This document shows positions 36,837-41,194 of a stretch of 64,000 nucleotides of DNA, in pieces. The DNA is from Escherichia phage KEP4: sequence record PP047754. One strand, given 5' to 3'. Below the pieces are notes generated by a model. It was not told where the DNA came from, did no database searches, and saw only the letters and a list, made by a program, of their open reading frames with translations. The first letter of the stretch is position 1; the number at the start of each line of letters is the position of its first letter. A program made the translations under genes and the position numbers.

Positions 36837-38420
36837 TTACTTGTATAGACCGTCAACATCAATAGATTTATGTTGGCGGTTGTATTCCGTAGTATAGTCA
36901 TCCAACACGAGATATTCACAGCAGCGGATTTTACTAGAACCGTAATCATCAGTGATAGACACGATGTCTTTCGGGTTCAGCTTACAACGCACAACCCGCT
37001 GGCCCAGGCTACCGAAACATTGTTTCAGATACGCCAGAGAACAAACGTGAAGACCATAGGAGCACAGGTCTTTGTTGTTATCGTTCACAAATGAGCGAGC
37101 CATCCGAACAATGGTCCCAGGAGCATTACTAACTTTTCCTGTGCGCTTGTCCATATAATTTCCGCGAACGGATTTGTATAGAATAATGTCGCCATCTTCA
37201 TGAATCTCAATGTCTGAGTATGCCATGAATTCATAGATTCGACCGGACTGAACCAGCGCGGCGCTCGGGTTTTGGAACATTTTGTCCAGGAAACGACCCA
37301 AGCGTTCCAAGTTCGGATAATCGCCTTTTAATGCCAAAGCCAAAATGCGTTTGGCAACGGAAGTTCCGGTGATATCATAGCCACCCCAGCGAACACGATT
37401 GTCTGAAAGGTCAACCATGCCTGTGGTGAATTGTTTGATGGCTTCACGCGGTTTCATCAGAGTGTACGCTGTTTTGACGTCACGATTTTTAATCGCTTCA
37501 ACAATACGGTCATACGCCTGGTGGCTCGTTGTGATCGTTTCCGGTTTACCATCAACCACGATTACGATACTTTCCGGCAAAATCATGATCTGGTGTTCGT
37601 TCAGGAACACAGACAGATCTTTTTCATTAAATGAATTCTGAGTTTGCTTGTCGCCTGTTTCTCCAACAACTGCAACAGTCTTGACCACGAATAATACGGA
37701 TGACAATGCCAGACGAAGTGTACGGCCTAAAATTACATCAAAGTAACCCACGCGCCGACGGGCATCAAGGGAACCGCGCATCGGGTATGTTTCGCCGTCA
37801 TGTTGTACACTGATTACCACGCCATCATTGACTTTGGTAACGCCATCAACCAGTGCTGTCGCCAATTCGGCCAACGGCGAAATATTTTCTTCATTGAAGC
37901 GGCTTGATCGAGTTTCTAACGGTTTCAGTTCTTCGCTTCTGAAAAGTTTGGCCTGAATAGCAGCAGAGCTATCGTAACGCATACAGATAAACACTGTTTG
38001 GTTTTCCAGGAAACGGCCAACATACCATTCTTCGCCTTCAGAATCGACAGACACCGAACCTTCCAGAACTTCATAGGTGTCGGGGATTTTCCCTTCTTCA
38101 GTCAATTCTTTAATTGGCGAAATCACGACCACGTTATTAGATTCTTTGATGATACGAACCATCAGGGCGCGGGCAATTGTTTTGGCACTGACGCCATAAA
38201 CTGATGCCAGAGAAGAATTGCTTTCACCTTTGCTGCTCTTGGTTTGTATTTCTTGAATCTGTTCAGTGGTCAGAGACTTAATCGAAGCTGGATCCACTCC
38301 CAGTTCTTTATCCGACACGCGTTGTATCATTGAGCGCGGTACGCCCAATTCACTGGCTATTGAACTTTGACTTCTGTTCTCATTCAACAGCTTGAGAATA
38401 CGTTTTTCTATAGCATTCAT
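36837..38420 (-). CDS. rIIB: rIIB-like protein (enlarged, 527 aa)
   Basis: Immediately downstream of rIIA on the same strand; N-terminal HTH-like segment as in T4 rIIB. Confidence 0.5.
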   Translation of the reverse strand: MNAIEKRILKLLNENRSQSSIASELGVPRSMIQRVSDKELGVDPASIKSLTTEQIQEIQTKSSKGESNSSLASVYGVSAKTIARALMVRIIKESNNVVVISPIKELTEEGKIPDTYEVLEGSVSVDSEGEEWYVGRFLENQTVFICMRYDSSAAIQAKLFRSEELKPLETRSSRFNEENISPLAELATALVDGVTKVNDGVVISVQHDGETYPMRGSLDARRRVGYFDVILGRTLRLALSSVLFVVKTVAVVGETGDKQTQNSFNEKDLSVFLNEHQIMILPESIVIVVDGKPETITTSHQAYDRIVEAIKNRDVKTAYTLMKPREAIKQFTTGMVDLSDNRVRWGGYDITGTSVAKRILALALKGDYPNLERLGRFLDKMFQNPSAALVQSGRIYEFMAYSDIEIHEDGDIILYKSVRGNYMDKRTGKVSNAPGTIVRMARSFVNDNNKDLCSYGLHVCSLAYLKQCFGSLGQRVVRCKLNPKDIVSITDDYGSSKIRCCEYLVLDDYTTEYNRQHKSIDVDGLYK

Positions 38421-38452
38421 CTTGTAGTTCTCACTGTGGGGTAATGGGGCTA

Positions 38453-41194
38453 TTATGCCCCGAGAATACGTTTTGAAATAGCCTTCACAAATCTAGTGGC
38501 ATCTTCAATCGCGTTGTGTGCCGAAGGCTGATATGTTGACATCATGAATTTCACCAAACGATGACATTCAACTCGGTATCGGTTTTTGGCCTTTTGCTTT
38601 TGAGATATAGTGCTAGTGACCTTTATCTCATCAAATCCTTCAGCAGTTAATTTTTCATTCAATAAATCAACAACTTGAGTTAACTGGTTACAGGCGCGGA
38701 AAAATCTCGTAGTTGAGAAAGGCATTTCTATATGATAATGTAATTCCTCAACAGCCTTGCGGAAATAACCGTACCCCGATCCAGACGGATTTCGTTTGGC
38801 CAGCATACGAACAATCTTCCATTCTTCTTCAGTGATTTGTTGTTTCGCATAACTGATGATTGCTTTTGCCCTGTGTTGATGATGGGCATAGCCATCCGTA
38901 ACTTTTCCATGGGAATCAATCAACAGCTTGGCACCATAATCAATGCGATGAGACATGATGTTTATGCCCTTGCGAAGTTTCAGGAGTTTCTTAGATTCAA
39001 GCGCCTGAAATTCATCTTTATAATGCTCAAGCAACATATCAAACACTGCGTCAATGGGGATGAATACTTCTGGGAATTTCTTCATCATCGGAACAGATTT
39101 ACGACGCGCAAGAACGATTGTTGGATGTGCTCCCAGCAAATCAAACAGGTTTTCGTTTCCATTCTCGCCGAACTTCGTTCTTTCCATCGCTTCACGCAAA
39201 TGTCCAGCCGCGGATTGTCGTAAGGTAATACCATGAATTTTATGGATACCTTCTCGGCCAGATACTTCGATATATACGATCTTTTTGCCCGAATCAATAA
39301 TATCTGAAACGGTTTTTCCATCTAATTCATAAACGCTGTCGAAGTTAAATGAATTGTAATGGAAACTAAACATCCCAGGATCTTTTTCAACGGTCGGGCG
39401 AACATATTCCATTTCATGCATGAAATAGACTTCATCCGGATTGAATAAATCGCCAAAAACCTCGATCAGTTTATCGGCAAAGACCAGGTAGTCCGGCGTT
39501 GTTTCTTGTACACCGATCCATGATTCAAAATAAGACTTCAATTCCTCATGGTTGGTAAATGATTCTTTATGTGCCGCCAGCTGATTCCGATTACTGAAAT
39601 AATTTTCATTCGGTTTGACGACGATAACGACATTGAAGTTATTGCGTGCTGTTTGTATCTTCAGGTTTCGAGCACGATTCGAGTTATCAATAATAACAGC
39701 AATTTTTGATTTAGATTTCAACCAATTTCCGACAGAGTTCACATAAATGCTGTCGTGTACTACACCGTTGTCGTGTACTTCAATTTCGTAAGGACTACCA
39801 ATAGACCGGAAAGGTGCATCCAAAGAGTAATCGCGCACGACGTCCGGCGCTCCGATATAACGGAACGTGCCTTTGTAGAAACGGTTATCTGCAGGAAATT
39901 CTCGCTCCACTAATTTACGGAAACCACTACCGAACATATCAGTCAGCTGAGTCTTTTTCATATACAACATAAGAGGACCCATTGACTCCGCTTGGCGAAG
40001 TTCATACATCTTCGCTTGCATGATATTTTCGGCCACATGCTTGAACACGCGGTTCAGGCTTTCACGAGTGAATTCGTCGTATGACAAGTCTTCGCGTGAA
40101 GGCGGTACATTCAGTTCCCCAAGTTCGAAGAAGGTATAGGAACTCGGGAATTTTTCCAGCACGGTGCATATTTCAGAGTCCAATTGGTCGAGATCTATCG
40201 GGTAAGAAACCCCGCCCATGACAGCATAGTGGATGTTGTCGGAATCTGACTTCGGTTGGATATATGTGTTGCCTACACGGTTTTCGAAGTTGATGTCAGA
40301 CCAACGGAAAGCATAACTGGCGTTTTCAACCTTCGGACGCATTGAAGGTCGCATCACTCGACCCAAACGGACCAACTCTTGTTCAAAGGCGGTAAAACGC
40401 TGATTCTTTACAGGAACTTTAACAGTCAGGCCGTTGAACTCATCAGTGTCCTCCGGTTTAGGATCACGGGTATCTAAATCCTTGGTAATGAGATCCACAG
40501 TTGGGATTCTGTCCGCATTCAGATACATCAGGAAGCGATACAGTTTCCCTTCATAGCGACTTTCTACTGTAAATGAATCAGATACCGCAAATGGGGATTT
40601 AGAACCTAGCCCAAACGCCCCTATTTGCCCGTCGTCGTCCTCTTTTGTACTATGGAAGAGTGTTGTATACAAACCAGGACCACGAATGATCTCGCCATCC
40701 TCAGCGCGGAATACCAGTACCCCATTATAATAACCAGGTGTACCAATAACAGCAGTGCTATCAGGGATTTCGTCTTCCTTCACGACGATATTACCTTCAA
40801 CCAGCACTTCATCTTCACGCGCTGTAATAGGCTCGCCGATGATCATTTCTAATGGAAGACCAACCCCATAATCTTTAATTTCCAGCCAGGGTTCCATAAC
40901 ATCCGGTAAATGTACAACAACAGGAGTTCCCTTGGGGGCAAGATGTTTGCTGTATCGTTGAGGCATAGGAGTGAGAGGAGCATAATGCGATGGCATCCAG
41001 CGTTGTTGGCGATCACGCATATTATGTGAGTCTATACCATTACACAACGTCTCACGCAAAGACGCCGCCTCTTTATATTTGTAGAGACTTGAAAATAATG
41101 TTTCAAATAATTTATCCGTCATCTTGACATTGAATGTCTGTCCGACGATGGTAGAAGAAGAGCGCACGAAATGCTCGGACTTGCGCATTTTCAT
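38453..41194 (-). CDS. rIIA: rIIA protein (GHKL-type ATPase domain, 913 aa)
   Basis: Large ORF with GHKL-like glycine motif IGAFGLGSKSPFAV. Confidence 0.75.
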   Translation of the reverse strand: MKMRKSEHFVRSSSTIVGQTFNVKMTDKLFETLFSSLYKYKEAASLRETLCNGIDSHNMRDRQQRWMPSHYAPLTPMPQRYSKHLAPKGTPVVVHLPDVMEPWLEIKDYGVGLPLEMIIGEPITAREDEVLVEGNIVVKEDEIPDSTAVIGTPGYYNGVLVFRAEDGEIIRGPGLYTTLFHSTKEDDDGQIGAFGLGSKSPFAVSDSFTVESRYEGKLYRFLMYLNADRIPTVDLITKDLDTRDPKPEDTDEFNGLTVKVPVKNQRFTAFEQELVRLGRVMRPSMRPKVENASYAFRWSDINFENRVGNTYIQPKSDSDNIHYAVMGGVSYPIDLDQLDSEICTVLEKFPSSYTFFELGELNVPPSREDLSYDEFTRESLNRVFKHVAENIMQAKMYELRQAESMGPLMLYMKKTQLTDMFGSGFRKLVEREFPADNRFYKGTFRYIGAPDVVRDYSLDAPFRSIGSPYEIEVHDNGVVHDSIYVNSVGNWLKSKSKIAVIIDNSNRARNLKIQTARNNFNVVIVVKPNENYFSNRNQLAAHKESFTNHEELKSYFESWIGVQETTPDYLVFADKLIEVFGDLFNPDEVYFMHEMEYVRPTVEKDPGMFSFHYNSFNFDSVYELDGKTVSDIIDSGKKIVYIEVSGREGIHKIHGITLRQSAAGHLREAMERTKFGENGNENLFDLLGAHPTIVLARRKSVPMMKKFPEVFIPIDAVFDMLLEHYKDEFQALESKKLLKLRKGINIMSHRIDYGAKLLIDSHGKVTDGYAHHQHRAKAIISYAKQQITEEEWKIVRMLAKRNPSGSGYGYFRKAVEELHYHIEMPFSTTRFFRACNQLTQVVDLLNEKLTAEGFDEIKVTSTISQKQKAKNRYRVECHRLVKFMMSTYQPSAHNAIEDATRFVKAISKRILGA

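Follow-up and report, generated by a model that had tools for sequence, protein, structure and literature searches.

The two large open reading frames (ORFs) found on the minus strand between positions 36837 and 41194 of the window, the whole stretch of 64,000 nucleotides (nt) of Escherichia phage KEP4 (record PP047754) that was analysed here, very probably represent the orthologous rIIA-rIIB gene pair of Kuttervirus, in the form typical of this lineage and with a presumed ATP-clamp role in counter-defence. The sizes of these ORFs, 913 and 527 amino acids (aa), are far above chance expectation, and the only plus-strand ORFs in the ORF list for the same interval are short (60-128 aa). The rIIA gene, whose stop is at 38453, is placed immediately upstream of rIIB, which starts at 38420; the two genes share the minus strand and are separated by a spacer of 32 nt.

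38453..41194, minus strand: rIIA gene (913 aa), an ORF with ATG start, identified by the RIIA profile phrog_3661 and by hhalign to T4-type rIIA
36837..38420, minus strand: rIIB gene (527 aa), an ORF with ATG start, identified by the RIIB profile phrog_3803

Lineage and existing annotation

The 4358-bp rII interval presented 99.2% DNA identity to Salmonella phages GG32, STP07 and kage, and 98.3% to Escherichia phage CBA120, in which orf001 and orf002 correspond to RIIA and RIIB. Because of this identity of 98-99%, the window is assigned to Kuttervirus (Ackermannviridae), in the Vi1/CBA120-like group. A total of 236 phage records matched the interval, 162 of them with a query coverage of at least 80%. 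The counterparts of both genes in GG32 and STP07 carry the RIIA/RIIB annotation, as do those of more than 100 public genomes, and the Vi01-like core genome includes RIIA and RIIB as its gp1 and gp2 (PMC10892097). At the profile level, phrog_3661 (RIIA, 917 positions) was matched by residues 1-913 of rIIA and phrog_3803 (RIIB, 530 positions) by residues 1-527 of rIIB, both with E 0.

These are, then, ordinary rII genes of their lineage, correctly and widely annotated, in which nothing unexpected was found and which were already known; the existence of variable accessory regions in rIIA and rIIB had also been noted in the literature. What is added here is a residue-level map of the extra segments, the specific affinity of the rIIA ATPase domain to the Hsp90 family, and a contrast in evolutionary rate, in which the lid insertion is constrained while the C-terminal half of rIIA and the beta module of rIIB evolve fast.

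Length of the two proteins

The T4 proteins have 725 aa (rIIA) and 312 aa (rIIB) in NC_000866, so that the window proteins exceed them by 188 and 215 aa, respectively. The preliminary description of this DNA, which had quoted the T4 lengths as about 725 and 312 aa, was correct on them and right in calling both proteins longer than their T4 counterparts. Its word "enlarged" holds in comparison with T4 and does not hold as the mark of an anomaly, since these sizes are normal for Ackermannviridae, in which homologues range from 504 to 555 aa for rIIB (n=42) and from 908 to 973 aa for rIIA (n~43), and T4 rIIB itself is found at the short end of its family.

It had also been considered that the extra length could come from mis-called starts. 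Both ORFs open at the first start codon past the upstream stop, and an AGGA sequence was found 10 nt upstream of the rIIA ATG. The N-termini are conserved in the homologue alignments (consensus MKMRKSEHF... for rIIA and M..EK.I...LK for rIIB), and homologues as distant as 33-39% identity cover 99-100% of each window protein. Because of these conserved N-termini, of this coverage and of the equal lengths of the PHROG profiles given above, the extra length is taken to be genuine coding sequence, typical of the lineage. An artefactual origin, either from mis-called starts or from read-through into small genes that are separate in T4, is therefore very improbable: no point in its favour was found, the surplus of rIIA is composed mostly of internal insertions or of a C-terminal domain, and the extra parts are modelled with confidence by AlphaFold2 (AF2). 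A derivation of the extra segments from the genes rIIA.1, denB.1 or denB, the neighbours of rII in T4, was considered and rejected, since no similarity was observed.

Homology to the T4 proteins

By BLASTP, residues 15-404 of rIIA aligned with residues 9-315 of T4 rIIA (24% identity, E 5e-25). A profile-profile comparison by hhalign, in which 17 Ackermann-type sequences were set against 24 T4-type sequences and which covered T4-type columns 1-575 of 714, revealed that residues 1-730 were collinear with T4 residues ~1-590 (probability 100%, E 3.9e-72). The T4-type family phrog_612 was also matched by the window rIIA, with E 5.1e-79.

For rIIB, BLASTP aligned residues 285-513 with T4 residues 88-311 (35% identity, E 1e-42), and the profile comparison extended the similarity to residues 47-513 against T4 4-311 (E 6.3e-61). 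The shared segment was designated the core.

36876..37589, minus strand: conserved core of rIIB (residues 278-515), shared with T4 rIIB 84-312

The core contains 24 positions that are invariant among the window protein, T4, RB43 and distant metagenomic homologues, including K497, R499 and Y503, and an invariant C453-S-x-G-L-H458-V motif (CSYGLHVC, window positions 37041-37064). The family PF26926 is listed as a precomputed entry for all rIIB homologues retrieved, which is an annotation of these homologues and not a score of the window protein. A metal or catalytic site formed by C453, H458 and C460 was considered as a candidate and was weakened by the presence of Ala at the C460 position in RB43 and by the variation of C479 and C501. 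The search of the core profile against PDB sequences returned nothing (E of at least 0.34), and no solved relative was recognised by fold either.

These comparisons bear out the identity that the preliminary description had given to rIIA, and the pairwise alignment with T4 and mapping of the extra regions that it had proposed placed the surplus in defined segments of both proteins. The second ORF, which had been called rIIB by position and by an N-terminal helix-turn-helix (HTH)-like pattern, proved to be a homologue of T4 rIIB as named, although on another basis: its identity comes from the conserved C-terminal core, which aligns with T4, and not from the HTH or the position. The same description had allowed that this ORF might be unrelated to rIIB, that is, an unrelated HTH regulator occupying the rIIB position. 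In this protein, Pfam sees only HTH domains, and some records name its homologues "helix-turn-helix domain-containing protein" or "DNA-binding protein", but the 35% identity of the core to T4 rIIB at the E values given above, the 24 invariant positions in common with T4 and RB43 and the full-length match to phrog_3803 leave such a regulator scarcely credible.

Proteins containing this core vary widely in size, from ~180 to 437 aa in the profile search and from 265 to 644 aa in BFVD; T4 rIIB appears near the short end and the 527-aa protein near the long end of the family, in which it is not unique. Two metagenomic proteins (P0044 and P0045) presented a permuted organisation, in which the core occupies the N-terminus, an acidic region resembling repeats comes next, and the C-terminus carries an HTH-like segment. 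As judged from these alignments, the accessory domains of rIIB vary and can be permuted.

The predicted ATPase region of rIIA

The literature describes rIIA as composed of a GHKL domain at the N-terminus and a highly variable C-terminus (PMC7824862). In the window, the N-terminal part corresponds to the following region.

39983..41194, minus strand: rIIA residues 1-404, predicted Hsp90-like GHKL (Bergerat-fold) ATPase region plus the following domain, recognised by motifs, profile and fold

The motif columns of this family were invariant or nearly so in an alignment of 38 sequences. They comprise the N-box, in which E48, N52 and D55 are invariant (YKYKEAASLRETLCNGIDSH), the G1 box (D108-x-G110-x-G112), the G2 box (G192..G195-L-G197-S-K199), with L196 among its invariant columns, and a P-S-R367-E368 motif whose R367 and E368 are among the invariant columns. 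When the rIIA family profile was compared with all PDB sequences, the matches were the N-domains of TRAP1 (E 9e-7), HtpG, Grp94 and Hsp90, with the exception of two weak matches to designed proteins. In these alignments, the rIIA consensus "LYkyKEaAvvRELlCNaiDaH" was aligned with "LYSEKEV-FIRELISNGSDAL" of TRAP1, and "IkDyGiGLs" with "IQDTGVGMN". The AF2 model of rIIA presented a mean predicted local distance difference test (pLDDT) of 85 and a predicted template modelling score (pTM) of 0.55; a Foldseek search with this model returned HtpG, TRAP1 and Hsp90 first (E 5e-10 to 1e-6, over 570-795 columns), and then GyrB/ParE and MutL. The Pfam domain HATPase_c_3 was detected in 7/38 rIIA homologues; Pfam gave zero matches on the window rIIA even at E 1, and a weak GHKL match on T4 rIIA. 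Nothing meaningful was obtained when either protein was used as a single query against the PDB sequences.

The invariant motifs, the profile alignment with TRAP1 and the Foldseek matches together place rIIA, as a predicted Hsp90-like ATPase, among the GHL clamp ATPases; its ATP-binding and catalytic motifs are intact and the catalytic Glu is kept. The protein is nevertheless not classed as an Hsp90, because the profile matches end at position ~121-223, Pfam HSP90 is not matched, and the full-length Foldseek matches to Hsp90s reached template modelling (TM) scores of only 0.23-0.25 when normalised to the query and 0.32-0.44 when normalised to the target; the middle and C-terminal dimerisation domains of Hsp90 were not recognisable in rIIA by sequence. 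The likeness is one of mechanism class and not of family membership. We know of no chaperone or DNA activity of rIIA.

The first 25 residues of rIIA are conserved and were modelled with low pLDDT, which is compatible with a strap exchanged in the dimer, as in Hsp90 and GyrB, although this is inference only. A weak NCBIfam match, below the cut-off (E 1.5e-4), was also observed between residues 178-210, in the G2-box region, and the sacsin N-terminal ATP-binding-like domain, which belongs to another Hsp90-like ATPase family.

Location of the surplus residues in rIIA

The surplus of rIIA was located by per-region residue counts in the 38-sequence alignment. In the GHKL fold, the stretch between the G1 and G2 boxes is the ATP lid, and the largest of three insertions relative to the T4-type proteins is found there.

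40925..41023, minus strand: insertion 1 (residues 58-90), 33 aa against 8 aa in T4-type proteins, just past the N-box helix and seen as a gap in hhalign
40670..40855, minus strand: insertion 2 (residues 114-175), 62 aa against 8 aa in T4-type proteins, in the G1-G2 interval (ATP-lid region)
39497-39610, minus strand: insertion 3 (residues 529-566), 38 aa against 2-9 aa in most T4-type proteins
39005..39982, minus strand: middle region (residues 405-730), fast-evolving, collinear with T4 ~316-590 and including insertion 3
38456..39004, minus strand: C-terminal domain (residues 731-913), all-helical and lineage-specific, 183 aa against 90-143 aa in T4-type proteins

Residues 176-260 contribute a further small difference, with 85 aa against ~76 aa in T4-type proteins. 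According to these counts, the 188-aa surplus is composed of the three insertions, ~9 aa within residues 176-260 and a C-terminus that is longer than that of the T4 type and not homologous to it. A group of Vibrio-phage rIIA proteins (P0090-P0096) has insertions 1 and 2 in common with the window protein, but not insertion 3. In the AF2 model, insertion 2 forms a subdomain of four beta strands (129-132, 136-139, 149-156 and 159-163; pLDDT ~80-87), and the C-terminus consists of helices over residues 726-911 (pLDDT ~85-95). The proposal that the Kuttervirus and T4 proteins have homologous C-termini that merely diverged was rejected, with an hhalign probability of 0.25%.

The mean pairwise identity within the lineage differed markedly among these parts. 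Insertion 2 reached 0.57, against 0.58 for the ATPase core, whereas residues 405-730 presented 0.26-0.29 and residues 731-913 only 0.16, the lowest value.

Accessory modules and surplus residues in rIIB

Upstream of the core, rIIB is divided into two HTH units and a beta-rich module.

38292..38420, minus strand: HTH1 (residues 1-43), an extra unit without T4 counterpart; Pfam CENP-B_N, HTH_28 and HTH_23 at residues 7-39
38160..38291, minus strand: HTH2 (residues 44-87), equivalent of the single T4 HTH; hhalign residues 47-87 against T4 4-50
37590..38159, minus strand: beta-rich middle module (residues 88-277), between the HTH units and the core, lineage-restricted and fast-evolving

The Pfam domain HTH_38 was found on rIIB in two stretches, the best at residues 47-85 (E 6.1e-8, 32.7 bits, cut-off 27). 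T4 rIIB has one HTH, at residues 7-50 in Pfam, which aligns with HTH2 of the window protein and not with HTH1; the two window units are identical at 9/22 positions, and their identity within the lineage is 0.52-0.58. In the AF2 model of rIIB (pLDDT 81.6, pTM 0.77), HTH1 covers residues 3-40, with helices at 3-13, 18-25 and 29-40, HTH2 covers residues 44-86, and the beta module extends over residues 88-248, followed by a linker and by the core at residues 278-514.

The beta module was modelled as two beta units around a helix at residues 177-192. It is the least conserved part of rIIB, with identities of 0.26-0.27, whereas the core reaches 0.79 in its C-terminal half, and an exhaustive phmmer search with residues 88-277 over 1.84 billion representatives recovered Ackermann-type rIIB only, plus one spurious repetitive protein. 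In hhalign comparisons across the lineage, probabilities of 100% and 98.9% were obtained for two distant subgroups and of 43% for the most distant pair, and the reversed control gave E 0.4; on these comparisons, the module is homologous throughout the lineage despite its divergence. No match at E <= 0.001 was obtained when the whole rIIB model was searched against the PDB with Foldseek. The weak matches of the beta module were to tandem Agenet, Tudor, SH3 and KOW domains (E ~4e-3, TM ~0.27, root-mean-square deviation ~16), a hint, and nothing more, that it may be formed by small beta barrels.

From these alignments, the 215-aa surplus of rIIB is accounted for by HTH1 (~43-46 aa), the beta module (~160-170 aa net of the 37-aa linker of T4) and a short C-terminal tail.

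Coupling of rIIA and rIIB

In phage RB43, a single RIIA-RIIB fusion protein of 1049 aa was found (YP_238977), in which residues 817-1048 are 33% identical to the rIIB core of the window (E 5e-37) and the HTH segment aligns with HTH2. The profile phrog_609 (1055 positions) similarly spans both proteins, with rIIA N-termini matching at positions 19-310 and rIIB at positions 738-1052. The RB43 fusion supports a physical or functional complex of rIIA and rIIB, which we infer from it.

Proposed role and alternative explanations

Previous studies revealed that the knock-down of divergent rII modules (<40% identity) from T4, MM02, EdH4, SUSP1 and N4 resulted in sensitivity to lambda RexAB (PMC11879866), and that T4 rIIA and rIIB were conditionally essential on RexAB hosts (HIDEN-SEQ preprint). 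By analogy, the most likely role of the window pair would be counter-defence against Rex-like abortive infection. In such a mechanism, rIIA would be a dimeric clamp driven by ATP, in the manner of Hsp90, MutL or GyrB, in which the conserved insertion would modulate dimerisation or the closure of the lid, and rIIA and rIIB would act as one machine. This machine would neutralise the Rex-like, membrane-depolarising abortive-infection systems of resident prophages, as in the five phages above, and the fast-evolving residues 405-913 of rIIA and the beta module of rIIB would likely be surfaces facing partners or defence systems.

Several points weigh against this role. The literature search found no experiment on any Ackermannviridae rII gene. 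The hydrolysis of ATP by rIIA, its dimerisation and its binding to rIIB are deduced from motifs, fold and the fusion protein, and the pTM of rIIA makes the arrangement of its domains uncertain. The classical membrane role of rII also finds no conserved transmembrane segment in either protein by Kyte-Doolittle analysis with a 19-residue window: the maximum was 0.92 for rIIA and 1.88 for rIIB, the latter at residues 235-253, which are predicted beta strands and are not hydrophobic in homologues. Any membrane association would thus be expected to be peripheral. Finally, the HTH units of rIIB suggest nucleic-acid binding, which is outside the membrane/Rex model.

This last point leads to an alternative that is possible but unlikely, in which rIIB would be a putative DNA-binding transcription or nucleoid factor and the pair, a clamp plus an HTH protein, would act on DNA and not on the membrane. 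Protection against Rex would in that case arise indirectly, for instance if the DNA-protein signal by which RexA is activated were concealed, and the second HTH and the beta module, with its weak likeness to Tudor/SH3/KOW domains, would extend nucleic-acid or protein recognition. Such a reading is consistent with two well-conserved HTH units, with the retention of an HTH in the permuted proteins, with the classification of rIIB as a specific transcription factor by Iyer et al. (PMC7824862), with the presence of the DNA-acting GyrB and MutL among the structural relatives of rIIA, with the proximity of rII to topoisomerase II genes in T4, RB43 and CBA120, and with the lack of transmembrane segments just described. 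However, the nearest sequence relatives of rIIA are Hsp90 chaperones and not DNA enzymes, and the fold matches of the beta module are weak.

Two further explanations concern the lineage-specific parts. We consider it somewhat less probable still that the lid beta subdomain, the helical C-terminus of rIIA, the extra HTH and the beta module are specificity determinants that retarget rII counter-defence. The aim would be exclusion systems other than RexAB in Salmonella, E. coli O157 or Klebsiella prophages, or else rIIB would evade systems that sense it, such as gasdermin/CARD-NLR. A gasdermin system of Lysobacter was previously reported to be triggered by the rIIB of T6, which is toxic on its own (PMC10312443). 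If this retargeting were true, the Ackermannviridae proteins would constitute a natural domain-swap series for dissecting rII action. That the additions are instead neutral decorations on a conserved scaffold, without any specific role, seems improbable. The poor conservation of the beta module and of the C-terminal half of rIIA (0.16-0.29) points in this direction, as does the fact that the 312-aa T4 rIIB functions without them; on the other hand, insertion 2 is as conserved as the ATPase core and is common to Vibrio-phage rIIA proteins, the module lengths are kept across the lineage, the beta module is still recognisably homologous, and AF2 predicts ordered folds. Counter-defence by a Kuttervirus-type rIIA-rIIB clamp is the explanation that we prefer.

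The rII locus is iconic historically, and the conservation map obtained here translates into concrete constructs for mutagenesis. On the conserved side, these would address the motifs of the Hsp90-like ATPase, the insertion in the lid and the core of rIIB with its C-S-x-G-L-H-V motif; on the lineage-specific side, they would address the C-terminus of rIIA and, in rIIB, the beta module and the second HTH. As far as genome annotation is concerned, the finding is routine, with gene sizes that are normal for the lineage.

Genomic neighbourhood and related records

Between the upstream gene (41302-41655) and rIIA, a terminator-like hairpin was read directly from the sequence.

41271..41290, minus strand: terminator-like hairpin GCCTCC-GATT-GGAGGC, followed by TTTTCT

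This hairpin is a sequence-level observation that the consensus scanner did not list. The scan for sigma-70 promoters and terminators returned counts equal to the shuffled expectation, and no promoter was assigned upstream of rIIA. Just downstream of rIIB, positions 36484-36783 (minus strand) encode a small, conserved protein of 99 aa that belongs to phrog_3805, whose Cys-rich pattern, C-x-C-x-x-C ... C-C-x-C-C, is suggestive of a zinc-binding motif; its gene overlaps the start of the next one, at 36096-36509 (DUF7440). A CARD-only protein adjoins rIIAB in Acinetobacter phage 133, as an example of a neighbouring anti-defence gene. The operon neighbours in the window were examined for anti-defence genes, and all of them fell in families of unknown function. 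In T4, RB43 and CBA120, rII is located no more than a few kb from the genes for the subunits of topoisomerase II, a loose synteny kept between Straboviridae and Ackermannviridae.

Some public records deserve mention. The rII operon of GenBank MN871475, "Pseudomonas phage Pa-sanjiao", with P. aeruginosa PAO1 given as host, is 99.2% identical to that of Salmonella Kutterviruses, which makes the host label doubtful. Two Ackermann-type rIIB proteins labelled Salmonella enterica or E. coli (P0013 and P0014) are encoded on contigs of 151-160 kb, which correspond to complete phage genomes in bacterial assemblies. In Salmonella phage 38, rIIB appears as two ORFs of 290 and 147 aa (BFVD A0A0N7C9T3 and A0A0N7C9T1), probably due to a frameshift or sequencing error; split fragments of this kind account for phrog_36818, a "RIIB" family of 163 positions.

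Comparison with known systems

The closest counterparts of the window genes are the genes for RIIA and RIIB in Kuttervirus and other Ackermannviridae (CBA120, Vi01, GG32, STP07 and SFP10), in which the lengths of the ORFs and the order of the genes are the same. No substantive difference from the other Kuttervirus rII operons was observed, and the window corresponds to another isolate of the group.

The T4 rIIA protein carries the same invariant GHKL motifs and the Hsp90-like ATPase, and its gene is also placed immediately upstream of rIIB; the window protein differs in the insertions at residues 58-90, 114-175 and 529-566 and in its unrelated, longer helical C-terminus. T4 rIIB follows the same order of HTH and core, with the 35% identity of the core extending over ~230 aa and including C-S-x-G-L-H-V, whereas the window protein has an additional N-terminal HTH, the beta-rich module of ~190 aa and a 12-aa tail. 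In the RB43 fusion, the rIIA ATPase N-terminus, the rIIB HTH and the core are united in one polypeptide, in the same combination that the window distributes over two proteins, but without the Ackermann-type insertions and with Ala at the C460 position.

Beyond the phages, the Hsp90 family (HtpG, TRAP1 and Grp94), GyrB/ParE and MutL share with rIIA the predicted Bergerat fold, the catalytic Glu, the Mg-binding Asn and the G1 and G2 boxes. The rIIA protein differs from these Hsp90/GHL ATPases in an identity of only ~10-17% in structural alignments, in the large beta insertion of the lid region and in an unrelated C-terminal half. With the Hsp90s, the likeness includes the signature LYxxKExxxRELxxNxxDA, which is aligned in rIIA, and a fold similarity that reaches past the N-domain.

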